Source of the DNA: Lingula anatina
Taxonomy: Eukaryota; Animalia; Brachiopoda
NCBI GenBank assembly: GCA_051362555.1
Contig: CM120646.1
Location: forward strand, 23,622,001-23,686,000
Direction: 5' to 3'
Length of the DNA: 64,000 nucleotides
Shown: positions 22,301 to 43,962 of the stretch, piece by piece
Layout: every line of letters starts with the position of its first letter
Numbering within the stretch: the stretch's first letter is position 1
Translations under genes and position numbers: made by a program
The notes under the pieces: model-generated
The model's database searches: none
Told to the model about the DNA's origin: nothing
Seen by the model: only the letters and a program-made list of their open reading frames with translations

Positions 22301-23568
22301 GTATTTCAAGGGGAATTCAGAGACTCATAGCTGAAAACAGCCGGAAATAAGAATGGCTGATCAAACGAACAGCTTAAAGAAAGAGCGACCGCAGTCCACA
22401 GGAGATTACGAACCAATGTCGGCCGACCAGACAGAAGGTCAGGAATTTTTGTGTGGTTGAAAAAATTACTTGTATCGCTGGGCCTGTATTTTTCTTTCCT
22501 CATTTTCATATATTTCGCTACATTTCTTTTCTCTTGATAGAAACTGTAAACATAACGAAACATCACTGAAATTGCGCAGAAAAAAATGAAACTGAAAGTC
22601 TGCGAAAATTACAAAATAAATGTACTGTATGGTATCGCTTGTGCATGTATTATCTGTAGAAGGTCTGTACTTAGAGGAAAGATTTAATAATTACGTATGT
22701 TAAAATAAAACGTGTCATTTATATAGAAACCCAGTTTTAAGACTTGTGTCTTTTACCTGATGTTTACCCCCTATTATAATTTTTTTCCTTAGTTCAGTGA
22801 CACGATTTAAAAGACATCCAAGACATCTGTACATCTAAAATTAACACAAGTAAGAGTCTGTGGCAATATTTTAGCCATCTAAAGCAAAGGTGATTTGTAT
22901 TCCCATAAAGAAAGAAGAGCAGTTGTGAAATACTGGTACATGTAGAATATGTTGTAACAGAACATAAAACAGTGAGTGATCATCAGGCCATCATCAGAAT
23001 CCATTTGAAATGGTTTTATTCATACTCTTGAGTTATATATGTTGAAACAATATATTTTTTTCATAATGATGAAAATTTTAAACTGTTGGATTTCAACACT
23101 AACTAAAGGCATACCTGTAAAAGCTTTTGTCCCAACACTTGGTACTTCATCAGTCACACTGAAGTTGTGAGACAGTGTGTAAAGAACAGTCTAATGTAGA
23201 AATTGAACAGTTCAAAATTATAGCATTATGAGCAACATTACCACAGATCAATTCCCATCAAAGTGGATTTTGTTATTGGTGTATCTGTCCAGCAGTCCTC
23301 AGTCAGGTTTGATTTTTATTTGTCAAGCAGTGATTGGGAAGGCAGAAATCAAGCAAGAAATGAGTGATAAAATTTTCTGTAATGTAGAGGAATGATGAGT
23401 CTGCACTCAGTGCTTCAAGGGAGGAGATTAATCTTCAGTTTGCTCATTCTCCTGTGATAAATGTTAACATGAACTCTTATCATTTTTTCTGCAGCAGGTC
23501 ACTGCCCCCATAAACCTGGTGTTCTCTTTGTAGACCATTGTGTGCTCATCATTTACTGCCTGACTGAC

Positions 23569-23572
<4 letters not shown>

Positions 23573-23647
<75 letters not shown>

Positions 23648-23941
23648 ATTGGATCCATGCTGAATAAAACCTAGATTAACTGACGATGCAGTTTTCATAT
23701 CCCCCTAAATAATAGTTAGTTTAATATAAGGTTTAGTGTAGCCTATTCTAGTTGAATCAGTTTCTCTTTTTTATCCCTATATTGATCTTTATTGAGTAGT
23801 ACATGTACTTTCCCTGCTTTAGTCTAGACATTATATAATGTATATCAAACTGTATATGGTAATCGCTATGCGGATTACTTCTTGTATTTGTATTTGATCA
23901 TGCCCGGATGTAGGGCGATTGTCAATAAACTTCTGATTCTG

Positions 23942-24020
<79 letters not shown>

Positions 24021-25032
24021 CATCAATTATCTCCATATATTGGTTATAGCTCAGAGCCTTTGCTATTAATTTAATTTAATTTAAATTTAATATTTTAAGT
24101 GACGTGCTTTGTTTAACATTGAAAAAGAAACTCAGTTTATTTGCGTCATGGTTGATTTCAACATGGAGAACTGTTTTTTTAATATGCTGAGAGAAATGAT
24201 CCAGAAGGCAGGCTACTGGTACTAGTAGGCAGGTAGAAATGATGATTAGAGCACATTATATTAGGAGAGTGAACCATTGAGTGCAATCCTTTGTAAACTG
24301 ATTGGTTCCAGTTCAGAGAAGATACAGTGTGTGTACTGGAAAGTAATCAGACAGACAACACCAGGTATGTCTATGTCATGGTAGACTACTGTGTGTAATC
24401 AAACGCCTTGTTGCTTTCAATTATGGGAAATAAATGGCAGGTAGACAAGTACCCTGTCCCTCAGACTGTTCTATGTGAGTAGAGATATTGTGTCTGATGT
24501 TCTGTACTTGGTGACAGGAAATTAAATGACCGGAAGAACACCAGAGATGAACCCCCCCCCCTCCCCCCCCAGACTGTTCTTTGTGAGTAGAGATAATGTA
24601 CCCGATGTTCTGTTTGGTGACAGTAAATTAAATGAATGGAAAAACAACAAAGGTGTAGCCCCCCCCCCCCCCCCCCCCCAGACTGTTTTCTATGAGTAGA
24701 CATAGCATACCTGATGTTCTGTACTTGATGTTCTGATGATTGACCATCAGACAGTTGCATTACTAATGCGTGTGCCTATTCATAATGGTTCTCCTTTGAT
24801 AGTTGTACTAGTAATAATTATTGTGTGTTTTCTTTATAGCTGCGTGAACTAATTTATTTGTACCATCATGGAAACTTCTGGGTTATTGAGTAAAAAAACA
24901 TGGGAAAGATGAGATAAAAAGATGCTGGGAAAACCAGAAAGAAAAAGAAGGTAGATTTTAGTCAAATATTTTAAGGAAAGACATCTGCATTAGGGAAATC
25001 TGAGTAAGAGAGATTCGGTGAGCTATGTTTGC

Positions 25033-25104
<72 letters not shown>
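23573..25104. repeat. Three (TA)n microsatellites (23573-23645, 23944-24019, 25039-25104) and a degenerate ~105-bp repeat x3 with poly-C tracts (24462-24735)
   Basis: Read directly. The unit core is CAGACTGTTCT..GTGAGTAGAGA..TGATGTTCTGT. Confidence 0.85.
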
Positions 25105-25108
<4 letters not shown>

Positions 25109-26283
25109 TTTTTAACTTTTATTTGAAACAGTGAGAAATAGTAGTCCTTATCTGCATCATGTGTCCCAAGTAAAACTGAAAAATGTTGGTTTGGTTTTGT
25201 ACAAACTTTAGTTCACCTATCTTTGCCCCCACATTATGGAGGAGATGTGGATATTTCAACAATTTAAAAACTATTTTAAATGAATGACTTGAAAATTGCC
25301 ATGAATTTTACTTTTAACACAATCAATAAACAAGCCACTCATGCTACATCATGCAGAAGTCTGCATTTAAAAAAATAAGAAACATTCATGTTAGTTAAAG
25401 GAAAAAGTATGTCCATTGCCAGAGACTTTATTTGATGTATAATTTATCAACTCAAGGGATTTCAATGTCTGCCCCAGGGACAAGGTTTCAAGATTATATA
25501 ATTAAATCTTAAAGGTCCTGTACTTTAGAGATAATGATAGTTACTTATTGGGCACCTAATGGCACTTGTTCCACCTTGTCAGCTCTTCCCTACATGATAT
25601 ATACAGATAGATACAAACTTAAGCATTGCATATCCTCATTGACATTCTTTATCATCATGATAAAACATTTTAGAAACTCTCATTTTTGTCTGTCATTCAT
25701 AAAAAAAGTTTGTGTAAAAGAGGCTTTTTGTGTACTAGTACTATCTGTCTTGTAGATAAAATATTACAGTAAGTACTATACTTGAACAGACCACTGGGAT
25801 AAAGTACCCCCCCCCCCCCTCCAAAAAAAAAAAAAAAAAAAAAAGAAAGAAAGAAAAATATGTAAAAGAAAAAATAATGTGTACTAGTAAATGAATTTGA
25901 CACTGAAATGCTGACAAATTATGACTTGGCTTACTCTAAGCAGAGTTTTCTCAAAACAAAACTGCTGGATAGTTTCTCAGGTCTAATGTTGAATGAAATT
26001 AAAGAATGATAAACTTGGTGGAAAAGTAGTACATAAATTATTTAAAATAGCTATTCTATAACATCAGATAATTTAGAATGTGTGGTTGAAGTCTCCAGAT
26101 GTGAGCACAGAATGGCAAAAATCTTATAATCTTGGAGGAGGAGACTTTGGAAGATGTATCTTGTAGAAATGTCACTAGGTTATCTTAACAGGACAACTTG
26201 AAGATACTACCACATTCATTCCTGTCATTCACCATGTTATAGATAAGTGGAGTATTTGGTACAAGTGGAGGGCTGGCGCCAAC

Positions 26284-26314
<31 letters not shown>

Positions 26315-28105
26315 ATAGTTTGTACATTGTAGCCTTGGCCTGCTTTATCTGAATACTAACATATCAGGGATGAGATATTTCCTGCCATTGGCAGATATCC
26401 AGCTTATTGAGAACCAAAATAACGCTTTTGAGATAAATGAAGATCTAAAAAAAAAAAATGGGGGGGGGGGGGGTAGGTCTGGACTCCACCCTTTATTTTC
26501 AGACATTCATTTAATAGCAATCACTGTATACAGTTATATTATTTTATGAAGTAGATCTTAACAAATATATATAGATTGTAGCATTTGCCTGGTTTATCTG
26601 AATACTGGTAATATAATTTTATAGGTATTAAGTTAGAAATATATATATATGTATTACAAAAATAACTACCTGCCTTCAGAAGTCTCTCAAGGTGATTTGT
26701 ACCTGGAGAAATTCATTATAGTAAATATTTTAAAAAGAGGAAGGTGAAAACCTGTGAAATATCTGTCAGGAAACCTCTTGCGCTCACGCTTTAAATATGA
26801 AATGGGAGAGTATTGATCCGGCTCTAATGACCTTTAGAAAATCAGGTCCTCCTCACTAAGGCCATGGTATATATAGGGAGAGAACCAGACGGTTTCCACT
26901 GTCCATGTTATCAAGACAAGTTAGGACACCACAGGTGATGTTAATACTAGTAAGCTGATTCAGGTAATTGTTAAATGTCAGGTGATTGTTCTTTTTGACT
27001 TGTTGTCATGTGGTTTCATTTGCCGTAGATTTCTGTAGATTTCGGGTGTTTCGTAACTCGTTATTTCCCTCCGTAGTCAAGATCATTAGAACATGGTTTT
27101 CCTTGTTTTCCAAGTTGATTACTGTCCTGCTATATTTTTAGAATAAAAAAATTAAAATTATAATTATTTGGCCTAATGTATAAAGATAAAAATTTTTAAT
27201 AAGTTTCCAATTAGAATTTGACTAAAACAGAGATGTAGGACAAAAACCCCTTATTTGGACATGTTTGATATAGGAAAGGGTGGTGTTCATTTTAATAAGA
27301 CATCCATTGTAAATAAGTACGTACTACCTTCCAGTGATTCCATTATTATCTCCTGTATTTCACTGAGATAAGATTACAATTAAATTCTCAGAGGAAGTTG
27401 GATATTTCTTGTATTCAGATGAAACAGAATTTAATTTAAACTGGTAATATGATACAGGATGTGTCAGGCTACTAGTACTTAAATACGCAATTCCTGATCA
27501 CTTTCAAGTAACAGTTGGATACAATATTATTTGAAGTGAGCAAGGGACGTATGTGGTATATTTATGACTATTTTTTCTAATCAGTAATTAATCTTGGTTT
27601 TTATATTTTATTAGTACTGTGAGTTATAATAGTAATTACGAAGCATGAGATGATTTTATGTTAGGTATCTTAATTGATTAGGTCTCAGGCTTTTGCAGAT
27701 TTTCTTTTTGTAGCCACATGTGGTTTATTAGTACACAGTAAATAAGGATATGTGTATATGTAGTATTTAGTTTTGGCAAATAACTGTTGCAATTTCAGTA
27801 GTGTTTTAGTATATGCCCCTCGTAACTTAAAGTACCAGGGTAAAGTCAAGAAATTTCATGGTCCAGGATGTTGTTCATGTTGCTGTGTGTGGGACGTGCC
27901 AGACAATTAGGCTGATTACATTGACTGCGCCTTGGTGAGAATCCCCACTGAGATAAACTGATCTAGCTGGACCAATAACTGTTACACTGAACACAGCCTA
28001 AGATATTCTTGTGCTTCATTTTTTCTGTCAGTAGCTAACACCAATTTTTTTACCATCATTGCCGATTTCATCATTGTATACAGCGTGTTATTATTTATCT
28101 TTTAG

Positions 28106-30288
28106 GTACAGCTATATCACCAAAGTTATTTTCTCCAACGAAACTGCGCTTCCCCAAACACATCCACACTCCAATGGATGACAAATTTCAGGAGATCGCA
28201 GATCACCTTCACCAACGCATTTTGGTAGACCCAGAATTAGCCAATGAAATTTCAGCGCCATATGAGCTTCCACAGTATCCCATTGAACAAAGAGAACAGA
28301 AGAACAAACTTGCACGCCAACTTAGTCACAAGTGAGTAAACAAATTTATATTGGACAGGCTTGGGTCTGATAAGAATCATTAATTCGCAGGGAAGAAATG
28401 TGAATTTTGCAGAGATTTCATTTTAGATAGGATGAGCTTAGATGTTTTACGTCATACTACTTGTAGATAGATGCTTGTTAATGGCTGAATTTGGGTTGAT
28501 CTAAAAGTACGCAGTTTTCATACACATTTTTTTTTTTTTTTTGCTAGAATCGTTGACAACAAAATAAAAAGTATAATTAAATACAGGAAACTTTGTCAAG
28601 GACTCCTCAAATTTTTTTATGCCACCATTAATGTAGCTGCTACAAAGCATGATGTCATGAATGGGGTCATGGTCAAAATGTCTTATAACATCTATGTTGC
28701 AATGCAATCACATTAGATTGTTTGCTCATTTATTGCTTTCTGTACACACATAATTGAGCTAAAAGTGTCTGACAAACACATTTTGATTTTGCTTTAATCG
28801 ATTGATTTTCTAGCGAGTTGTGCTTTTCTTGTATTCTGTTTCAGCCATCTCTGTAGTTGCCATGTTTTTGCTGAGATCAATGACATTTGCTCCTTGGGTC
28901 AGATGTACCTCTAATTACGCTGCCTAATTGATTACTAGTATAGAAATAGAACTGAAATAGGCGATTGTTTGAAATAATTACTACTGATTTTTAAAAGAGT
29001 GTGACATCTTTTGATATGTCATGTTTTTAATTTAGACTTTTACAATTTTTGGCATAACATATTACATGACTTATGGAGCAAGTTATACCTTTATTCTTCA
29101 ACAGTCTAATATTGACTTTGATTTAGAAGATATGAAATGATATCAGAGTTGTTGTTTTATACATCCCTTTACTTAACCTGTCTGAAGATTTTATTTTATT
29201 TATTTATTTTATTTTATTTTATTTTATTTTTGTAGTCGCGTTAATCAATTAAGAGTTTTAGATTATTTCTGTCACAAAATTTAGAGCAAATGCAACATTT
29301 TTGGGTCTTGACAGTCTTATTATAGATTTGAAGTTTTTCAGTTACAAAATTGAAAACATATTTGGATTCTTCTAATAATTTAATAAATTCTTCAAGATAT
29401 ATATTCACTTAAATGATGACCAGTCTGTTGAACATTGTAACTAAAATAACTTATGGGCCATCCTTTACTTTTCAGCTTGCAAAATTAAAGTAGTGTGTAC
29501 TATAGGATAACTAAATATTATCCTTATAAATACTACTTATTATCTTGATTGTAATTAACTGTGCTTTTTTACTGTAAAATATTAGAGTGTCTTTCATTCT
29601 CTGATGCATTGATGGTGCTCAATAATTAAAATATAAATCCACTTTCACTTTTCTCCCTCTCAGGATTCCGCCTGCTTGTTCAAAACTGTGTTTCAATGAG
29701 TGAGTGTTTGAAGCATTTCTATCCTCACACCACTTTCACTTTCACTTCAGTAGATGTAGCTTTCACCCTGGTGGCAGTTTGAAGAGCATTAATTCTTCGT
29801 ATGAATTTAATTTGGTGATAACAAAGAGAACATTTCCACCAGAAAATGAAACAATGATGATAATAAAGTAGAAAATGAAATTATCTTAAAAGAGTTGGGC
29901 CATTTGGCCATAAATTTTTATACTAGTAACAGATTCAGAAGTGAATGCATTATCTATAAAATTGATACCTCATAAGTGTATATAAAATATTTCTGGTGGG
30001 AATGGAGTCTTTCTGTTCACGTGGTTCATGGTGCAGTTTCACAAGACGCGGGGTGCACGCGGTGCATGCAGGGACAGGTGACACCAGGTGTGTTATCATT
30101 GTCCCAGTAATGTCAGGTGTGAAATGATGTCAGGTGTGCATGAAGAGTAATGACCTCTGTGGTAGTGACATCACAGAATACCGCCGTATGTGGTCCTGCA
30201 GATTGCATTGCTTTGTGTTTTTTTATCTTCATATCTGACCTGCAGGGGATTTGTTACCACTTGGTTATACTGTGATTATATCATAGTG

Positions 30289-30340
<52 letters not shown>

Positions 30341-33300
30341 TCATTTAGTGAAAGGATAGAAACTTCACTTTAGAAGATACAAGAAAGAGCAGTCTGATAG
30401 TAATGACATGAAATAATCAGAAAGAATTTTTTTTCCTTTTTTCGCTTTTTTTTTTTTAATTGCCCCAAAGCAGTACACATATTCTTGATTCAACATGGAG
30501 TTTTGATAAAAGGTAAAAAGTAAAATTGTGATGAGTAGAAACCAGCATATTGTGCATCTTGGGTTATAATGATTACGGACCAGCATGACGTCAACTTTTA
30601 TATTATCATTATTATGTATGGAACTTTGGCAGCCCTTTCACCTATCTTACAAAATATGTAGTCATTACAGAATTGCTGTTTACGTAATTAACACATTTTA
30701 GATGGAATTAAATAAAGATGGTTAAAATGGAAGCAGTCATAAATTGTGGTTGAAATTTGAAGTTTTAAGTAGATGTATAACATTGAAAATACCAAGTTAC
30801 AATCCAGTTAGATTGTAATCGACTGTCACTGTGCAGAAATACTTCTTCCTTTATCTAGAAAGAATCTAGCCAATTTTGTTATTGAGAAATTGGGGAAAAT
30901 CACTTCAGAATGAATTGGAAAGAAAATGCCTGCAAGATTAATTACATTGCTTTAATTAATGTTCAGCAGCAGAGCATTAACAATGTAATTTAGAAGCTAA
31001 AATAACCCAATTTTAAATAATTGACTAAATATACTCTACTCATAGCAAAGGCTTAATGAAGTGAAATGAAGTAATGTATTGATCTGAAAAAAAATGTTGG
31101 GAATGGGAAAAGAGAACTGTAAACTGTTTATTTCACTCAGGAAAATGAAGCAGACTGCCACTTGTGACTTGAAGTTATGATTTCTGCATGCAATTGCCGT
31201 AATTGTAATCGTAAGCAGTGACGCATGCAAGCATGCTTCCTTATTATTTACACGCATGGGTTTGTTTGTTTTCAATGTTGTGTCATATTTGTAAAAGCTG
31301 TTGGCTCATATATTGTCTGCAGAAGTCTCTGGGTAGTTTTGCCTTCAGTTGATGCAGCTACTTAGTGAAATGTCAAAGAGTCTGTAGGGTAATTTGATCA
31401 TCCTGGTATCTAGGAGCCTGCTTTAATTACAACCTGAAGATGTAGAAGTGTTCACAGAGCTATGTTCCTGGAATAACTGACATGTTTAATTATAGCAAAT
31501 TAACTGGAATGTGCTTTTATCACACCACTGGCTGATTTGACTGGTCAAGACATGTTGAATACCCCCCAGTGAGCCTCGTTTCAGTTACTCTATGATTACT
31601 CTAGGCAGTTGCTTAGCGACTAAATCTTATCACCTTGGCAACAGTCTGTCCAATATTTTGTCATATACTATCAGTAATTGAAACAAGATTCATAGGGGGT
31701 TGCCTTATACATAAAAAGGCCTGGTGAAGGAATTTTATGATATTTTTATTAGTTTTATTTTAAAGATTTAACGCTAACTCAGGGATATGATATTTTAATA
31801 ATGCAGAAACATATAGCCACTAACTAGGGGTAAGGGAATACTGAATGGTATGGGGTCCATGAAAGTGTCTATATCAGGACTTGGCTGACACCACAACCAA
31901 TATAGATATTTTACATGGACACCATACCCTTCATTGTCTCCTGCATATTAACCAATTAATGATTTTATAAGATATTATTCAGTTAAGTGAATTTAAAATG
32001 CAGTGAATGGCTTAATGTCTCCCATAAGTAAAAATAAGTCATTGGATTTAACGTAATATTTATTTATGTAACATAATACTTACCCAATTCTTTAAAATTC
32101 CTGCATCAAGTTCATTTTTGAGATAAAGAGGGTGTGCATATTAATAGTTGAAGATATTATGTTAGTTTTAACTCTAATATAAGTGTGGACACCGTGGTGT
32201 GATCAGGCCTTTTTTTTTTTTTTTTTTTTTTTTTTTGTGATACATTTGACACTGGTAGTAGTGAAGGGACTGAAAAACAAATTAACTCTGGGTTATGGTT
32301 TGGGTTTGTTTCATCATTTGATGTTGTGTTGTGGTCTTGTATTGCAACACCAAAAGGGAGGTGCTCTATTTAAAGACGTACACATTTTTCAGTATGAAGA
32401 TATGCAGTAATAGTAAAGTAGTACAAGGAATAATAATGCTCGACAGAAATTAAAATTAAAACAGTCTAAGGGTACTTGATGGCAGCTTTACCCCAGATAA
32501 TTATCTACTGAAATGTGTATTTATAGAAGTAATACTATTCCTTCAATTTTTTGTCATCAGTCTTTGGATATTTTAAATATTGCTTTTAATTTCCACACCC
32601 AGTGTCTTAGATTAAATGACTAGAACTTAATTTTTGTGTCTTTAAAAATAATACATGAAGTGAAAGAATGCCATGATGGTTGATGGTTTCCTTCCTTAAT
32701 TCTGTATGTTGTCTATTCTGTTGTTTAAGATCCAAGCAACATGCAGAGAGCGGCGGACACATGGGTCACATGCATGTGCACACACACGGCTCACATGTAC
32801 ACACACACGGGCCACTCGTACGCCAGGCGCACACAATGCAGGAAGAACTGGCCATGCTCAGTGAACAGGTAATGTGTGTACTTACACATCACTCAGTGAC
32901 AAGTGTAACTTTTATAGCAAGTTCATTTGGTGCTGTGTGAAAGAATAAATGAAAACAATTAAAGGGTCAGAGTTTTCAATTATTAAGAAGTAGGGAAAAA
33001 GTTACTACTTGTGTGTTTCAGCAGATTAAAAATAAAAGCCCTTGATTGGTGGGACTTGAAGTCAAGTTCTTCAGTGCATTTTTTAATTTTTTTTTTTTTT
33101 TCAATTTTGCAATTTTTGGAAAATTGAATTAAGTATTCTAGGTGACTCTAATTTTTGTGCAAAGAATTTACTTCCCTGACACCAAGTCTGTTAGATGACC
33201 TGTGTCCCTTTTGACTCTCTCTCTCTTTCAGGAGATGGCAGTGGATGCAGAGGAGGAGAGAGTGGAGGCGGAATGTTTGGAAACCGTGTTCCAGAGAGTC

Positions 33301-35780
33301 AGCATCAGCGGGGAGGACAACAGTGGGGTAAGGGTGATATCTGTTTTTGATATTTCCTTTTAGAAATATTCTTTGCATATATTCTCGTAAAAGGAGCCAG
33401 AGGGTACCATGAAAAAACTGGCCCATGTCTTTAATTCCAAGATCCTCTATATCTTTATACTCAGCCAATGCATGTATTCCACTAAATTTTGTTTTAAAGT
33501 AATATCAACATCTTTTGTCTCACTATCCCCCTAGGTACCACTAGCAGACCTGAAGGAGGCCTCTAAGAGCTTGGTGCGAGCTCTGCTGATCCGTGAGAAG
33601 TACATGGCGATGTCTTTACAGAGTTTCCCAGGTACCACAGCCAGACACCTGCAGAAGATGGAGGCCAAAGGCATCTTTGAGGGGGACGAGTTTGAAGAAA
33701 TTGAACACAATGCCAAAAATGGAGAAGGTGGGTTTAAGTCAGAATGAGGCTGTGTGGAGGAGAGGACTGAGTTGTGATTATTATGTGGTCTTAAGAGTGG
33801 CAATAAGCATTGAACAAAATGGATATTGTCTGGTTTGAGAGAGAGAAAGAATTGCCGGAAAAAATGGCAATGTTGTCGTTAAAGAGATGATAAGAGCCTT
33901 AAAAAACCAGGAAGCAAGGTCCTGAAAATCACTTTCTTAGCAGGTGGGTTGATATATAAGTGAAATTGGAAACTTCTTATTTGTTTTTAGTTTGTTTGAC
34001 ATCACAGAGGTTTGTGAAGTATTCACTCAATGAAGGCAGTACTTTACCTCTTGTTATGCATGAATGGCATGGTGTGTTATACTGTATTTATAGACATTTT
34101 ATTGCAATTTATTTTGATTTTAAAAAAATAAGTATTTAAATTTCATTATCATTTTTATTTATTTATTTTGTTAACGTTGACTTCTTTTGCGTGTCAGGTG
34201 GCAGTGCTAAGTGGGTTATGTACTATAATGCACAGTTTAATCCAGGTAGTTGTTTAATTCAAAGAAAACACCGTCACCATTTAGATGTGCAGTGATTGTG
34301 GTGGTGTCTGCATCAAGTTACTGACCTTAACTTTTTACTGTGTTATATTCTGCTTTCTGGTGTTAATAGCGTGACACATGTTAATTCTTACATTAATATT
34401 GTAAGGGTCTGTGAATTTGAATGAGCACTTCACTCACAGTACACATGCTTTTATGAATAATGTCATCCTTTTTTTTATAATAAGTTGTGATTTACTATTA
34501 ATAGAATAGAATACAGTATTGCAGCTGTATTTTTTAAAAGCTTATGAAGAACACTCCATTTTCTTTATTGTGTTTATCACTTAACCAGCACATTTCATTT
34601 TTTAACTGACGTTTTTTCTCCTAAATGCAAAATGCTCATTTCTAACAGCTTTTAGTGCTTCATGTTCTGCAATAGAGTAGCAACATTGTAGAATGCTCTT
34701 AAACTTCTCCTCCCTCCCCCCTCCAAAAAAAAAAAAGAAAGAAAAAGAAAACAAAAAGTAAAAAAAATAGCCAGAGATATGTTTTTGCTCTCCTTTCATC
34801 TCTCATTTTTGAACATAACAAATTTTATCAGTTTTTTCCAGGAGCAAGTGTTCCTCTCACACTAATGGATTGATTGATTGATTAATAATTATCTTGTACC
34901 AGTTAATACCCCTGTGGACTGTTATGTATACCATAAAGAGCTCAATACATTAATTTTGTCCTAAATTAACATTGATCCTGCCTTCCTTAATTTCATGCAT
35001 GTTACCCAACAAATGCACATTTGATATATCACGTTTTTTGTCCACATACCAAACTTTGCAAAACTATTAATAGTGATCATGATAAATAACCTTTTCATTC
35101 AATAACCTTGACCTGTTGAACTGAACATGATGACCTTGACCTGCTGACCTTGACACAGTGACTTGTTGTTTTTGTGGAACCTAAATATAAAAGCAAATAT
35201 TTCAATGATTTTTGTTTTGATAGAGGTATTATATAGCTTAGCTTTATTTGGATTAGGATCCTAATACAGTGTTGCTTATGTAATTGTTATAATTTCAAAT
35301 CTTCTGATATTCATCAGACTTACAAACTTAGTGAAAGAATTAAAGTTCAGGAAAGCCACATACTGTAATTGATAAATTGAATAATGAATGCCACCAAAAA
35401 CAATCCAATACAGCTTATGTTTTGTTGTTTTATTTCCTGTGCTATACAGTGTAAATTCATCCCACACCTTTATAAAGAGAAGAAGACATATTATGTACTC
35501 AGTAATTGTTACCATATCTTACCATGGCAGAGTACGTGGAGCCCCCAAACATCCAGTCAGATCCCTTCCACATCGAGTTCCCAGACGCAGTTGGCTGTCA
35601 CTTCAAGCTCCGCCATGGTGTGATGTATGTGTACAAAGACCAGGAGTGCGTAGAGAGAGATGAGCCCATAGAGTGGCCGTACCCTGACCTGGAAACCTTC
35701 ATAGATGACCATAACCTCATGTGTGTCCTCATGTCTGACGGACCTCTGTAAGTGGAGCTGAGAGAGAGAGAGAGGTTGAC

Positions 35781-35813
<33 letters not shown>

Positions 35814-38800
35814 AGTAAGATTGCACTGTTTCAGATTTATCATGAATATAGTTCCTAATTTTTCTTTGGCTAAAATAACCAGTTATTTGGCTACAAGAAT
35901 ATTGTCCCAAAGTGGTCTAAAATTATAGATTATTGATGACTCTTTCAAGCCAAGTTATCCAACATGCCCATAGATGGTGTCAATCTTTTGCATGTAATTT
36001 TAATTCATGGGTTGTGTTTTATGGTAAATGTGTCACTTACCCTGTGTAAACTATATCATATATTCCAGGAAGTCATTCTGCTACAGACGTCTGTCGTACC
36101 TGTCCTCCAAGTTCCAGCTTCACAGCCTCCTAAATGAGATGAGAGAGGCAGCGGCACAGAAGGAAGTGCCCCACAGAGATTTCTATAATATAAGAAAGGT
36201 GCAGTATTACAAGGGGATATTTATTTATCAACAAGGCTTTTGTTGCTCCAATAATGCTCAGTAATTTTGAATGAATATCAACAAAGAAAATTATGCATTG
36301 AGATGGTCAATTCTAGACTTGGATTTGATCAGGTGACTTAAAAATAGCACTTAAAGTAGGAAAATTTCTGTTGATTAATTGATGTTGATTTTGTAATACA
36401 GCAAATATATATATATAAAGAGGAGATGATATGGATTTGAAAGACATTAAATACAATACTACTACTACTGCTACTAACTACCACTACCACTACCACTACC
36501 ACTACTACTAACAACCACCACCACCAACAACAACAACATAGTGTCCAGGTTTTATGATTTATCTGCTGGTCCTCTTTCAGGTGGACACTCACGTCCATGG
36601 TACGTCCAGTATGAACCAGAAGCACCTGTTGAGGTTCATCAAAAAGACTATGAGGACCAGTGCCAGCGATGTCGTTTGTAAAGATAACAATGGCAAGGAG
36701 ATGACACTGGAGGAGGTAATGAAACCGATGATAGTGAAGCAAATTGGTCACATGCACACGCACACAGTCACACACATTCACAAGTTTTGTTTTTTTTTAA
36801 ATCTGACAAGGGGACAATTTTTCAAGTAATAAGAAGAAAGTATGTCACAAAAGTTATGGTTAAAAATAGTTGCAAAATTACGTTAATAACTCCAGCTACA
36901 AATTATTGTATTATAAAATGATAAGAATAATATGTGTGAATACCAGTATCTGGTGTTTTGGGGGAAAATATGTGTAAATTGTTCTAAAAAAACTTGGTAA
37001 TCCCCTTGTACTGTGCTTTATCCATGAAGTTTGGTGGTTTTCTTCTTTTGGACAGTAATGATATTTCAACTCTGTTTCAGGTTTCAGAACAGCTCCAACT
37101 GTTTAATATCCTTATGCATGTTGTAACAACACTAATTTGGTGATAGTATGGAGATTGGTGAAGCAATATTGTGTTTTATAAAAAATGGGGGTGGTTCTGG
37201 TGAAAATGGAGCTGAGAAGGAAGGTTATATTTGTATTACTGCAGTAACCTTCATTAACTCTGGTACAGTGAACGTCTCCCTTCATTTCCAGGTCTTTCAG
37301 TCAGTAACGTCTGCCAGAGAAAAGAAGACAGGTTCCCGAGATGACAAGAAAAGAGATGCAAGTTTTCTTTTTCTTTAATGTTTGTTTTCCTTCTTGCATC
37401 ACAACTGCTCGCCATCATCATTCTTCTTTCAATTGTTAAGTCTTAATTTTGGGGAAAAAACATGCTTGTTTTGGGTTTTATTTGCCCTCATCTTAGTAAA
37501 TAACATCAAGTTTACTATTTTTGAATACAAAATAAACATGATACCAGTTCTCTCATGTTAAACAGTCAATTTTGTTTAAATGTAAATTGCTTTTTGCTGA
37601 CACGAAAATTAAATATTTATATGAGAGATATCTGTGTACAAATTTCACTGTCGTCTATAAGTTAAGCTTCCCCTGCTTTTGTTGTAATGCATGTTACATA
37701 CAAGTGCTGTTCTTTAGCAGTACGTTATGAGTACGAGTTATTTCTTTCCCTGTAACTAGGGGAGAACCTGTCTGAAAAGTTTTGGGGGCTGGTTTTCTTA
37801 AAACTACACAGAAAATCTTTTACGTTTTTTTATGAAGTTTGTGATAAAAGAGCTTTTTATCTCTCTCTCTCTTTTTCACAAAAAAATCTTTTTCAGGTTT
37901 TTTTCTGCTCAATACATCATTTAATTTCCCAACAATTTTCAGTTTATATTATTATTTATCATGCATGTGGATGTTTTTTTAGCATTTTATGAGAACATTT
38001 CCAGGTGCTATCAAGGAGGGATATATTTTGTCTTTCATGTATTTTCCATGTTTATTTTCATGCATGACATATTGTACATACTTAAATTATGTAAATGAAA
38101 TTCACGTTGAACAGCTAAGCACCAGCAGATATTTTAGTTTAGCGTCCAGGCGCCTTTCTGTCGCTAGTCACGTGATAAACAGTAGCTCTCCATGTTGAGA
38201 AGGTTCATATCAGCTTCTCCTTGTAAACCCTGGTTAATGTGTTGATGATGAAGCTATTTCTGTTGTCAGGTGTTTGAAGGTCTAGGGCTGACAATGTATG
38301 ATCTGAATATAGACACCTTAGATGTCCACGCTGTGAGTTTATCGTCCTTGACCTGAGGGTTGACCTTTGACCTGTGTGATGACCTTGACCTGAATATTGA
38401 CCCCCTGCATGCCCATTATGTTGCACATAGCCGCATGTTAACTCTCAGCAGTTTCACATCCCCAAGTGCTTCTTGAAGTGTGATTTTACAGGGTTTTCAC
38501 AATGGATTTAAAGAAATAACTGTTTTATAATGACTTACCCACGTTAACCCTCTCTCTTCCATCAGCTTATTAACCCTATTTCTCTCTGATTTTGGTATTT
38601 TGCAGGTTTTTCAGAGTTTAAACTTGACAGCGTATGATCTCAATGTTGACATGCTTGACGTGCATGCCGTAAGTTTCACAGTAACATGTGACAGTTTTTG
38701 ACTTTTGAATTTGTGTTCACCTAAGGTATATTAACATACAGATTAATTGCGGTGTGATTTCTATTGAATTTGTTCACCTTTTGTTGCACAATTTCCAAGA

Positions 38801-40755
38801 GAATTTTTCAAGCAGACATTTGTGTTTTTTTTAATGATTATCATCCAGGATGAAATAAATATTGAATACCTCTTTCTAAGACTGGGCTCCCACAGATTTA
38901 AATTGATCCATCTGGATCAACCTAACTCTCTGGGGTTTCACACTAAAATGCAGTCAGCCGAGCATGCATTAAAGTTGATTACCCCCTTACAGCTTTTAGT
39001 AGGTGGGACAGACATTTAAGCTGGCTAAGCTGATAGCAATCTAATGACACTCCCCACGGGGATTGATCGATCTAAAACCTGTGCGAATGCAGTCTAAAAC
39101 CCTGAAAGAGAAGTTTATAAGGCTTTTGCATAGTTTCTTATCTAATAGTTTAGTAGAAACAAGTAGGATTTATGTAGAGGTTCTCTTTTTGTTATGGTTT
39201 TAATTGCACAGAAGTCTTTTGTTGCTCATAGTATTAGTAATCTTTATCCTCCTTTTCTTTTCAACTTTTTTAGTGTTTTGATTTGGATCTTGGTTCTTGG
39301 TATTCATTTCAGTTTTGCCTAAGCTTTAAATTAGTGGTTTAACTTGTTTAGTTTCATATAGCTGTTATATATTAGTTACTTTCATTACCTCTTCTTACAT
39401 TCAATTTGTTTAATTTGATCAGAGTATCTGAATGTGTATTTTGGCAATCTTATTTGATGTAAAATAAAATATTCATTTTTGAAAGTATATAAGACTCATG
39501 TTTGTATCTTACACACACGCGCACACACACACATTCACACACACGCACACACACACACACACACACTTGCCTGTATTGCCCCTGTATGTGACCTTCCCGT
39601 TTCTATCCATGCGTAGGACCGTAACACGTTCCATAGATTTGACAAGTTCAATGCCAAGTACAACCCTATTGGAGAGAGCAGACTGAGAGAGATCTTTCTG
39701 AAGACAGACAACTTCTGTAAGGGCAAATATCTGGCCAAAGTGCTCAAGGTAATCTCTCCTCTTTATATCTGACTTGATTCGTATTCATTTTATACTTCGA
39801 GCCTTGTTGCAAACTTAAAGCAAAGCAAAGTTATTTTGTAGCAAAATATTGATGATCAGTTTCAGCTACTTACTGAAATGTAGATATTGTTCCAAGAATA
39901 AAGCCTACTAGTTTATCCAAGACTTTAATGAAAAATCTTCAAGAGTTTATTTATAATTCAAGGATGGACCAACTGCAACACTTTCACATATGGATTCCTA
40001 TGTCACCCAGCTACCATAGCAACAGCATTTAACAAGATTTAAATATCAGCAGTGTGTATTATGCTTGTTTAACAAATAAGAGAAGAGTTCTAAATTAATT
40101 TAAAATCAACATAAACTATTTCTACTCCCTCTCCAGGAAGTTCTGAGTGACCTAGAGGAGAGTAAATACACCAATGCGGAACTGCGGCTGTCTATCTATG
40201 GTAAGAGACAGTCAGAGTGGGACGACCTCGCCAAGTGGGCTGTCACTCACAAGATGTACTCTCCCAATAACAGGTGGATGATTCAGATGCCCAGATTATA
40301 GTAAGTTATGGTGTGAGAGAGATGTATATTCACGCTTATGTAATGATGAATTTTCTGCATTAAAAATGCTTTAATGCTTTAAGAAAAGTTAAGTCTGCAA
40401 AACTACATGTATAAATGCATGTTTGATTGACTTTATTTAAACTCGTAATGGATTTGATAATAGAAATGGCTGATGTGGTCTGAATAGGGCCTTGCTTTTG
40501 AAGTGGAGTCGCCCATATTTAGTCAGGGTATCAGTTAGTACTCAGATGTTAAAGAAGAGCTGCTGCCATCACAAGGACACCACACTGACATCTCTCACTC
40601 TGTATGTCTCCTGTTATTTCAGTGATATCTACAAGAGCAACAATCTGATCCAAAACTTCCAGGACATCATTGAGAACCTGTTTCTTCCTCTGTTTGAAGT
40701 CACCAATGACCCCAAGAGTCACCCTGAGTTACACATGTTTCTACAACATGTGAGT

Positions 40756-40803
<48 letters not shown>

Positions 40804-43800
40804 TTGCTACCTCAGGGGTGACAGGCATAAAAGAGTATTTAGTTTTAAAGTGTTCAAAACTGCCTGGACATCACAGAGTATAGATCTTTTACAAGATCTC
40901 CAGTAAACAAAAGCAGTTGACACCTTGACATCTAGCTGCAAAAGGCCCTTTGGTTTAGTTCTCTGTTTGAAGACCAGCAATACCAAGAGCTATCCTGAGT
41001 AACATATGATCCTTTGGCATAAACAGGTGTTATTACTGTACCTGTTATTATGAAAACTCTTGTTATTGAATGAAGAAAGATAATGAACACCTGAAGTTCA
41101 ATGCCCAGAATATCCAGATCCTTAGGAGTGCCTGTTTATTCTTCTGCGTCATAAAACCAGTGATATAAAATGTTATCCTCCTGAGCTATATGGTTCTCTT
41201 CAGCTTATATGGATGTTAATGTGAAAACCAGTTGTCTTTGATTTATGTTGTTATTCTTAATGATTAGTACCAACTTATTTTTTAGATCTCTGGGTTTGAT
41301 TCTGTTGACGATGAGTCAAAGCCCGAGTTGTTCAAGTTTGACAAGAGTACACCATACCCAGAGAACTGGCATATGGCTGACAACCCACCTTACGCCTACT
41401 ATCTCTACTATATGTATGCTAACATTGTGGTGCTTAATCACTTCAGAAGGTAAATGTCTTAGTTCTTTCTGTCACTAGTATAAGATTGTCTTGAATGATA
41501 GTGGTCTAAATGGATGTCCTGCAGATAGGGCTGTTTTCTGTTTTTCCTTCTTTTCTTATTTCTACCATCTTTTTCACACTAACGTTAAAACATGATATGT
41601 TTTATATCTGTTTTCAAAATAGTGTTGTTTTCATAGATGTCTTGGTTGAAATCACTTGTTTGACATATTCAATTTGGTATTTTTAGGGAACGTGGTTTCA
41701 ACACTTTCACACTGCGCCCTCACTCTGGGGAAGCAGGTCATGTGACTCATCTAGTCACGGCTTTCATGGTCGCTGAAAATATTTCCCATGGACTGCTGCT
41801 CAGAAAGGTGAAATGTTGTCAATTTGAGATGAAAAATTTATTGTTTTGAAATTTCATATTGTAATTCCATAATATATTTTTGCGTGTTAGTTATTCCCAA
41901 GAACTGTTCATAAGTTCAAAACATCTTCAATAATTCACCTAACATCTTGATATTGAATTTTAAAATGAATATCTTATATGTGCACAGCACTGCTATTTTT
42001 GATAAATTAATAAATTGAGTGATTTCCTATCTCTAGGTCCCAGTGCTGCAGTATTTATACTACCTGGCTCAGGTAGGAATTGCTATGTCTCCACTCAGTA
42101 ACAACTCACTGTTCCTGAACTACCACCGTAACCCACTGCCAGAGTACCATGCCAGGGGCCTCAAGGTGTCCCTCAGCACTGATGACCCACTGCAGTTTCA
42201 CTATACCAAGGTAGGTCAAGGTCATGCTGTCATTATGGCAGTTTCACTTTACAAAAGTGGGTCAAGGTCATGGTGTCAGGGAAGTTCCACTATATGAAGG
42301 TAGGTCAAGGTCATGGTGTCATTATGGCAGTTTCACTTTACAAAGGTATCTTTGACTGCAGTTACTTTTGAATCAGAAGCCTTATATGTTATTTATTGAT
42401 CTTATTGTTCATTGCATGATATTAGACATACAAAGTTTCAGTGAATTTTTTAAAGATGAAATAATCACTGCTGTATGAATCCAAGGTTAATGACATTTTC
42501 TGTTTATGTAAACTTTAACAGTTCTATTTGGAAGCTTTTACTGCACCGTGATTAGTTGATGTAGGTTTGCAACACAGGAGAAGAGATGTGGTGAGGTGAA
42601 CAGGATTATGACTCCCTTTCTTAGTTGACTTATCTTATATTGTGTAGGAGCCGTTGATGGAGGAGTACAGCATTGCAGCCCAGGTCTGGAAGCTGAGCCC
42701 ATGTGATATGTGTGAACTGGCCAAGAACAGTATAGTGATGAGTGGGTTTACACACAAGGTGAGCTGTTAGGAATATTGGATAGATACAGTATAGTAATGA
42801 GTGGATTTACACACAAGGTGAGCTGTTAAGTATATTGGGTAGATACAGTATAGTAATGAGTGGATTTACACACAAGGTGAGCTGTTAAGTATATTGGATA
42901 GATACAGTATAGTGATGAGTGGATTTACACACAAGGTGAGCTGTTAGGTATATTGGATAGATACAGTATAGTGATGAGTGGATTTAAACACAAGGTGAGC
43001 TGTTAGGTATATTGGATAGATACAGTATAGTGATGAGTGGATTTACACACAAGGTGAGCTGTTAGGTATATTGGATAGATACAGTATAGTGATGAGTGGA
43101 TTTACACACAAGGTGAGCTGTTAGGTATATTGGATAGATACAGTATAGTGATGAGTGGATTTACACACAAGGTGAGCTGTTAGGTATATTGGATAGATAC
43201 AGTATAGTGATGAGTGGATTTACACACAAGGTGAGCTGTTAGGTATATTGGATAGATACAGTATAGTGATGAGTGGATTTACACACAAGGTGAGCTGTTA
43301 GGTATATTGGATAGATACAGTATAGTGATGAGTGGGTTTACACACAAGGTGAGCTGTTAGGTATATTGGATAGATACAGTATAGTGATGAGTGGGTTTAC
43401 ACACAAGGTGAGCTGTTAGGTATATTGGATAGATACAGTATAGTGATGAGTGGATTTACACACAAGGTGAGCTGTTAGGTATATTGGATAGATACAGTAT
43501 AGTGATGAGTGGATTTACACACAAGGTGAGCTGTTAGGTATATTGGATAGATACAGTATAGTGATGAGTGGATTTACACACAAGGTGAGCTGTTAGGTAT
43601 ATTGGATAGATACAGTATAGTGATGAGTGGATTTACACACAAGGTGAGCTGTTAGGTATATTGGGTAGTGCACAGTGGGTAGACAATTTATCTAAAGTTG
43701 CAGCTATATATTTATACAAGTACCAAGATAACAATATGTTTTTGCATTCAGAAGCTGTCACCATACCTCAAGCCCCTCTATATTTCAGGTAAAACAGCAC

Positions 43801-43962
43801 TGGCTTGGCCCAAACTACAACAAGGAAGGTGTCGCTAGTAACGACATTACCAAGACAAACCTGCCTGATGTCCGAGTGGCATTTAGATACGAGACCTTGG
43901 TGGAAGAGTTGGACACTATTTGCAGTGCCGCCAGCAGAGAGACGGACCAGTGTGAACAGTAG
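28106..43962 (+). CDS. AMPD2: AMP deaminase (AMPD2-like); the true first coding exon is unresolved, first in-frame ATG at 28174
   Basis: Exons 28106-28331, (29664-29699), 32730-32868, 33232-33327, 33535-33727, 35531-35747, 36069-36198, 36581-36715, 38270-38332 or 38606-38668, 39617-39748, 40137-40301, 40623-40749, 41286-41449, 41687-41807, 42037-42210, 42648-42758, 43789-43962. Motifs: [91 protein letters not shown]. Confidence 0.96.
38879..39095. mobile_element. MITE, same family as 62566-62750
   Basis: Imperfect TIRs AGACTGGGCTCCCACAG / CTGTGCGAATGCAGTCT. The internal CAGACATTTAAGCTGGCTAAGCTGA is shared with the copy near 62650. Confidence 0.6.
42728..43667. repeat. 59-bp minisatellite x16 containing the end of the penultimate AMPD exon and its 5' splice site
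   Basis: Unit CAGTATAGTGATGAGTGGATTTACACACAAG|GTGAGCTGTTAGGTATATTGGATAGATA at 42728+59n up to 43613. The copies are near-identical and the first is the coding one ([10 protein letters not shown]). Confidence 0.97.

Follow-up and report, generated by a model that had tools for sequence, protein, structure and literature searches.

Tandem duplicate exons of an AMP deaminase 2 gene in the brachiopod Lingula anatina are used alternatively and are probably nearly exclusive

AMP deaminase guards the energy charge. In vertebrate AMPD genes splicing occurs at 5' exons, and to our knowledge the diversity of the enzyme described so far comprises paralogs and 5' exons. A locus of Lingula anatina raises the question of whether an internal segment of the enzyme can also be exchanged: a first-pass annotation of the sequence had proposed that two homologous exons of 63 nt stand in tandem in an AMPD gene and are probably spliced in a mutually exclusive manner. 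This raises the further questions of whether both copies are genuine, how they are used, what their exchange would do to the enzyme and where the pair comes from. The window, that is, the whole stretch of DNA analysed, comprises 64,000 nucleotides, and the features discussed are collected in Table 1.

Table 1. Features of the AMP deaminase 2 locus, with positions counted from the first letter of the window.
Feature	Position	Strand	Description	Evidence
AMP deaminase 2 coding span	22353..43962	+	830-aa protein P0005, XP_013422045.1, Lingula anatina	
Upstream constitutive exon	36581..36715	+	HxH zinc motif (His380, His382); phase 0 end; donor GTAATG	
Exon C	37292..37357	+	Unannotated 66-nt in-frame cassette; AG acceptor, GC donor; 22 mostly charged residues	C-to-B reads
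Exon A	38270..38332	+	Derived copy; preceded by CAG, followed by GTGAGT	Joints to both flanks; at 5 of the 6 residues that differ, the less common one
Intron between A and B	38333..38605	+	273 nt; six TGACC, two GCATG, eight branch-point-like heptamers	
Exon B	38606..38668	+	Ancestral-like and major copy; residues 422-442 including Asp439; preceded by CAG, followed by GTAAGT	Joints; homology to single exons
Downstream constitutive exon	39617..39748	+	Residues 443-486; HRFDKFN helix	

The Lingula anatina AMPD2 gene lies inside the window, and P0005 was mapped onto it exon by exon by tblastn and exact peptide mapping, the downstream exon being 100% identical to this protein (AMP deaminase 2, Lingula anatina). 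The domains PF19326 and PF00962 are present together with the HxH zinc motif and full-length similarity to solved AMPDs, the alignment with human AMPD2 has an E value of 2e-293 and is free of gaps in the 21-residue segment, and the predicted fold of the protein matches 8HU6 best. The domains, the motif and the matches to P0005 and human AMPD2 thus bear out the earlier identification of the gene as an AMPD. One of the two members of the RefSeq protein cluster was read, and it carries exon B alone, so that exon A is missing from the visible gene model.

The coordinates and both peptides of the first-pass annotation proved to be exact, and its description of two exons of equal length and phase (0-0) with intact splice sites holds, both having AG acceptors. 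The copies lie on the same strand, 273 nt apart, and are homologous: they share 41 of 63 nucleotides (13, 18 and 10 of 21 at codon positions 1, 2 and 3, respectively) and 15 of 21 residues, with six residues differing. The two arose by tandem duplication of a single exon of the AMP deaminase gene. In a scan of all open 21-codon frames on both strands of the window, A scored 109, B scored 106 and the next best frame scored 32, so that the pair is unique and far beyond chance. Between the copies, saturation is confined to synonymous sites (pS 0.82 versus pN 0.21; Fisher p 6e-5 with rounded counts), which confirms the earlier claim of purifying selection on both. Among the 14 differences between reads and window that were classed, with many more listed or hidden, 13 were synonymous and the remaining one is a change from Glu to Asp in A, where the other two of three checked differences were synonymous. 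An assembly artefact or an allele is ruled out: 35% of positions differ between the copies, their flanks are unlike, and both are spliced. The splice joints together with the selection also rule out that A is a pseudo-exon.

The use of the two copies was followed in RNA reads. Nine runs (X1 to X9) are listed under the species label, eight were used (X3 was left out) and 6-30% of each was read; joint counts include both mates, and a row was listed from three reads at two starts in one run, though some rows of two reads also occur. All four joints to the flanking exons are present. The upstream exon is joined to A in six reads of a single run, placed three bases rightward with the expected skip of 1554, and to B in 28 reads of seven runs, and the downstream exon is joined to A in 14 reads of three runs and to B in 37 reads of six runs. 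At low depth and with this listing threshold, neither an A-B joint nor an upstream-downstream joint skipping both copies was listed in the eight runs. The junctions that had been suggested as a check (36715 to A or B, A or B to 39617, and absence of A-B joins) are thus found as predicted, at low depth, and it is neither the case that one copy is never spliced in nor that both are always included together, as each copy joins both flanks. Of the proposed mutually exclusive splicing, the alternative use of A or B stands on the four joints and is practically certain, and B is the major form. Strict exclusivity is likely, though judged from 14 A-downstream reads: with such low counts and the listing threshold, as many as roughly one in five 3' joints of A could still lead to B (3/14 rule of thumb). 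Near-strict exclusivity is, in our estimate, highly probable.

The ratio of A to B among 3' joints varied between runs (6:3, 4:0, 0:6, 4:13, 0:4, 0:10, 0:1 and 0:0, with X1 having no informative joint). Heterogeneity among the seven runs with joints, which carry no tissue labels, had a permutation p of 0.0002 by distinct starts and of 0.035 with reads halved for mate overlap. Within study P2 the counts were 9:3 versus 0:6 (p 0.009), for a grouping picked post hoc. Reads of study P3 (X7-X9) carry many synonymous differences from the window between 36581 and 40301, up to eight per read and more than those of X1-X6, and they may come from animals of another population, or of a cryptic species, that bear the same species label. 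Part of the difference between runs may therefore be genetic. That the choice between A and B is regulated is probable.

The first-pass annotation overlooked exon C. Its joint to B (from 37357) was found in eight reads (two in X7, four in X8 and two in X9), all from study P3; these three runs have 14 upstream-B reads. The C-to-B joint was unlisted in the runs of P1 and P2. The upstream exon is presumably joined to C as well: that joint is itself unlisted, and a bin depth of 0.13, corresponding to 17 bases in two runs, would fit one read entering at the acceptor. As a third homologue of A and B, exon C is ruled out by weak alignment scores and a flank-inclusive shuffle fraction of 0.58.

Two versions of the same 21-residue segment were also found in ten bivalve species, that is, in five oysters, two scallops, Mytilus edulis, the unionid Sinanodonta and the ark clam Tegillarca, in which they stand in tandem in one model. 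These pairs come from automatic RefSeq/GenBank annotation and are known from proteins and models, not from genomic exon boundaries. As in Lingula, the two versions are of an identical segment in one gene; oysters add forms with both copies and with neither. Models with both copies are common in two oysters (four of eight in C. virginica and 6 of the 15 listed in O. edulis) and occur once among 15 in M. gigas, and one of eight models in M. angulata (P0434) has neither.

Such models bear on a rather improbable alternative, in which A and B would be independent leaky cassettes: one-copy transcripts would dominate, transcripts with both copies or neither would also be made, and inclusion of both, or of C, would add about 21 residues and act as an off or down switch. 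Both exons have lengths divisible by three, so that every combination stays in frame; exon C is in fact joined to B in eight reads, and inserts are annotated at or beside the start of the segment in several other animals (see below). In C. elegans the AMP deaminase gene C34F11.3 is also alternatively spliced: the accessible text of two reports describes its exons 10 and 11 as tandem cassettes and not as exclusive exons, the cassettes being of 36 and 189 nt and the 36-nt one depending on the neuronal CELF protein UNC-75 (PMC3627589, PMC4165533). However, the Lingula reads contain 14 joints from A to the downstream exon and none listed from A to B, and no skip was listed against 85 single-copy flank joints. 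The listed models of scallops, mussel, unionid and S. echinata contain one copy each, and the oyster models with both copies, which the Lingula result puts in question, may be prediction artefacts.

The inserts just mentioned comprise 5-21 residues and are annotated at the segment start or three residues inside it in spiders, beetles, Mya, Dreissena, Pomacea and one further protein (P0123, P0148, P0016, P0087, P0110, P0242, P0414, P0347 and P0196). Many of them end in Gln, as alternative acceptors would, and from these protein models the segment start looks like a splicing hotspot.

If alternative, nearly exclusive use of A and B is accepted, the choice has to be enforced. Frame surveillance by NMD cannot do so, because both exons are 63 nt long and thus multiples of three, and the pair therefore differs from NMD-enforced pairs, whose exon length is not divisible by three. 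At 273 nt the intron leaves enough room for splicing, and its length is unlikely to be what blocks A-B joining.

It is also doubtful, in our view, that exclusivity is mechanical, with A-B splicing blocked either by a distant branch point of B near the donor of A or by an RNA helix pairing the acceptor regions. Four branch-point-like heptamers do lie at 38351-38400, less than 70 nt from the donor of A, and a 16-nt inverted repeat links 38232-38247 with 38560-38575; a distant branch point is reported for OGDH in the accessible part of PMC7969005 and is possible for B. However, seven AG dinucleotides lie between the donor-proximal heptamers and the acceptor of B, and ordinary branch-point candidates are found at 38573 and 38589. 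Helices at least as stable as this one (-21.6 kcal/mol) arise in 2.7% of shuffles and in 16% of 3667 window pairs, and a pair probability of about 0.1 was computed for it. This helix was the best candidate and is not above background, so that a docking-site/selector arrangement was rejected.

Activation of A by splicing factors is our best guess for the mechanism. The intron between the copies is rich in motifs, with 22 TGACC and 7 GCATG per kb versus 0.7 and 1.0, respectively, in other introns, GCATG being presumably an Rbfox-type site, and its eight branch-point-like heptamers correspond to 29 per kb versus 6.9 per kb in other introns. Exon B has a consensus donor and a more pyrimidine-rich acceptor than A. 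B would be the default, and A would be switched on in some tissues or states by factors acting on the intron behind it.

Two further observations concern the introns around the pair. The stretch 38354-38415 (+), in the intron behind A, aligns to A with a score of 37.5, a 9-nt insertion and a 1-nt gap, and has no splice sites. None of 459 window tiles attained this score, which dinucleotide shuffles attained in 0.4% of cases and block shuffles in 0.5-1.3%; the stretch was chosen post hoc and may be a decayed third copy of A. In the intron downstream of B, 38880-39090 is a repeat with internal inverted arms to which hundreds of reads from both strands fit in part; it is likely a small non-autonomous transposon.

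As A and B are each spliced between the same two flanks, a given transcript likely contains one or the other but not both, and the two resulting enzymes of 830 residues would differ at six positions in a helical segment at a predicted subunit interface. In the fold model (mean pLDDT 62.9, below 50 at 439-462), residues 422-442 form a helix, a turn, a short helix and a loop (helices at 419-425 and 435-438) that leads into the HRFDKFN helix, which we take to bind the substrate phosphate. Macak et al., in the accessible text of their report, inferred a salt bridge between K287 and D361 across the dimer interface of AMPD1 and measured a Vmax about 25% lower for the K287I variant (PMC12246493). The spacing between the conserved Lys and Asp is 74 in two vertebrate AMPD2 proteins, equal to that of K287 and D361; the Lingula equivalents, with one extra residue, are Lys364 and Asp439, the latter inside the alternative exon. 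By this spacing, and against a model that the paper itself inferred, Asp439 would match D361 of human AMPD1 and occupy an interface position.

Asp439 is identical in A and B, as are all residues that are invariant across the family segment. Two of the six differences sit two and four residues before it, and the changes from B to A in its vicinity are Val435 to Ile and Met437 to Thr, plus two added glycines. Because the zinc ligands and Asp439 are kept and the neighbours of Asp439 are changed, the swap would tune subunit packing, leading to a shift of Vmax or cooperativity and not of chemistry. The two forms likely differ in subunit packing, and we give even chances to a measurable kinetic or regulatory difference between them.

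It is unlikely that the pair is real but neutral, with A a tolerated redundant copy, kept since a spliced copy must fold, and the two enzymes alike. The retention of the family-invariant residues in both copies would be expected in that case, and several residues of A are found in ordinary single-exon AMPDs, for example in crinoids with 17 of 21 matches to A. However, synonymous sites are saturated, yet A stays open and used; its use varies between runs; and twin copies persist in oysters, scallops, mussels, ark clam and unionid. In addition, Ile at position 14 of the segment occurs together with Ser, Thr or Asn at position 16 in 7 of 7 cases versus 10 of 114 otherwise, in a sample that is enriched by the A query and contains non-independent sequences. 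Duplicate exons of probably near-exclusive use, with putative regulation and interface tuning, are the best overall explanation, and one in which we place good confidence.

The origin of the pair was approached by comparison with other animals, in which the segment was mostly seen in one version. B matches the single exons of gastropods and several other animals at 18-20 of 21 residues (Littorina, 20/21); A matches the crinoid single exon at 17 and the minor copy of Mytilus at 16 of 21. Among listed bivalve isoforms, a second version was not seen in Ylistrum (2 isoforms), M. californianus (5), M. galloprovincialis (2), Ruditapes (7), Mya (8) or Dreissena (6); the same was true of the listed gastropod isoforms of Haliotis (14), Littorina (14), Pomacea (11), Biomphalaria (10 with the motif) and Patella (7), and of those of Lineus (9), Tubulanus (5), a cephalopod cluster (8) and Patiria (5). 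For large protein clusters, 15 of 22-37 members were listed. Of 80 metagenome loci, 39 had no complete upstream-downstream interval, and 26 of the remaining 41 either resembled mRNA or carried the segment in one piece with the upstream exon. This left 15 complete genomic intervals in which the 63-nt exon stands by itself; about 11 of them are distinct, and the proteins nearest to them are most often those of annelids. The exon was single in all 15, with a second-best score of at most 19 versus 73 for the window. A search with an A-type profile gave no named brachiopod, phoronid or bryozoan besides Lingula among the best 120 of 1262 matches, which is weak evidence.

Some single models deviate in other ways. 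P0510 (Schistosoma turkestanicum) contains two identical tandem copies of the segment, through an assembly artefact or a very recent duplication, and the models P0097 (Taenia solium), P0241 (Pinctada imbricata) and P0003 (Leptidea sinapis) are without the segment, probably because a small exon was missed.

Separate duplications in brachiopods and bivalves are modestly favoured by these comparisons. One ancient duplication in the lophotrochozoan ancestor, kept in both groups and lost elsewhere, is the less probable course, though a serious one. In its favour, it is the identical exon that is present twice in the two groups, the major, clam-like copy is the downstream one in oysters and ark clam, like Lingula B, and Lingula A and the Mytilus minor copy have the rare Ile14 with Ser/Thr16 in common and are paired, with each other alone, in the best-scoring tree. 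Absence elsewhere is in addition partly based on annotation, which missed A in Lingula itself. A single origin would nevertheless require many losses, given the 15 single genomic intervals and the single segment in all listed gastropod, nemertean and cephalopod isoforms. The residues common to Lingula A and Mytilus are also present in single-exon crinoids and the schistosome model, and the other bivalve minor copies are without Ile14. Tree tests on the 21 columns gave the single-origin tree a p-AU of 0.019-0.032, but a p-SH of 0.13-0.14; the two-origin tree, 2-4 log units from it, was not rejected (p-AU 0.24-0.32), and a free tree of 39 segments left most relations unresolved.

The exon swap in PKM serves allosteric tuning. 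PKM is listed as an internal event in the accessible part of a catalogue of human exclusive exons that arose by tandem duplication, where likewise equal-length homologous exons are swapped in an enzyme and one segment differs; AMPD1, AMPD2 and AMPD3 have no occurrence in the supplement of that catalogue, as a text of 352,992 characters (PMC8373072). Unlike the human cases, the Lingula pair is hosted by a lophotrochozoan AMP deaminase and is known from genes and RNA reads alone. In tropomyosin, Dscam and ion-channel genes, as far as the accessible text of PMC3342872 describes them, one exon was likewise duplicated in separate lineages and is alternatively used; AMPD, in contrast, is a housekeeping metabolic enzyme, and the independence of the duplications in brachiopods and bivalves is modestly supported. 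The mechanism of tandem exclusive exons is thus already known, to the extent covered by these two sources (PMC8373072, PMC3342872), and the AMP deaminase pair appears to be newly described: the literature consulted, mainly open-access texts, contained no account of it in brachiopods or molluscs, and the bivalve isoforms are already in public annotation. Vertebrates likewise have several forms of one tetrameric enzyme in AMPD1/2/3, but there the forms are separate genes, whereas in Lingula six residues are swapped internally, which would be a far smaller change than an exchange of paralogs. The further idea of the first-pass annotation, that a single gene would in this way furnish the kinetic or tissue isoforms for which vertebrates use AMPD1/2/3, is conjectural.

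The annotation of Lingula is corrected by two unannotated exons, A and C. The internal swap adjoins a putative subunit salt bridge and is a natural six-residue experiment on the control of activity by the interface; a human variant in this region costs the enzyme about a quarter of its Vmax (PMC12246493). With the swap, a metabolic enzyme joins the few genes in which duplication may have struck one and the same exon repeatedly. It is a tentative extension of this view, and one we hold to be less likely than not, that the segment is a recurrent splicing switch, with independent duplications, convergence of Lingula and Mytilus on Ile14 and Ser/Thr16, and cassettes at the same point elsewhere. 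If true, sessile shelled animals would retune the control of the adenylate pool by a swap at the dimer interface, for example in muscle or at low oxygen.
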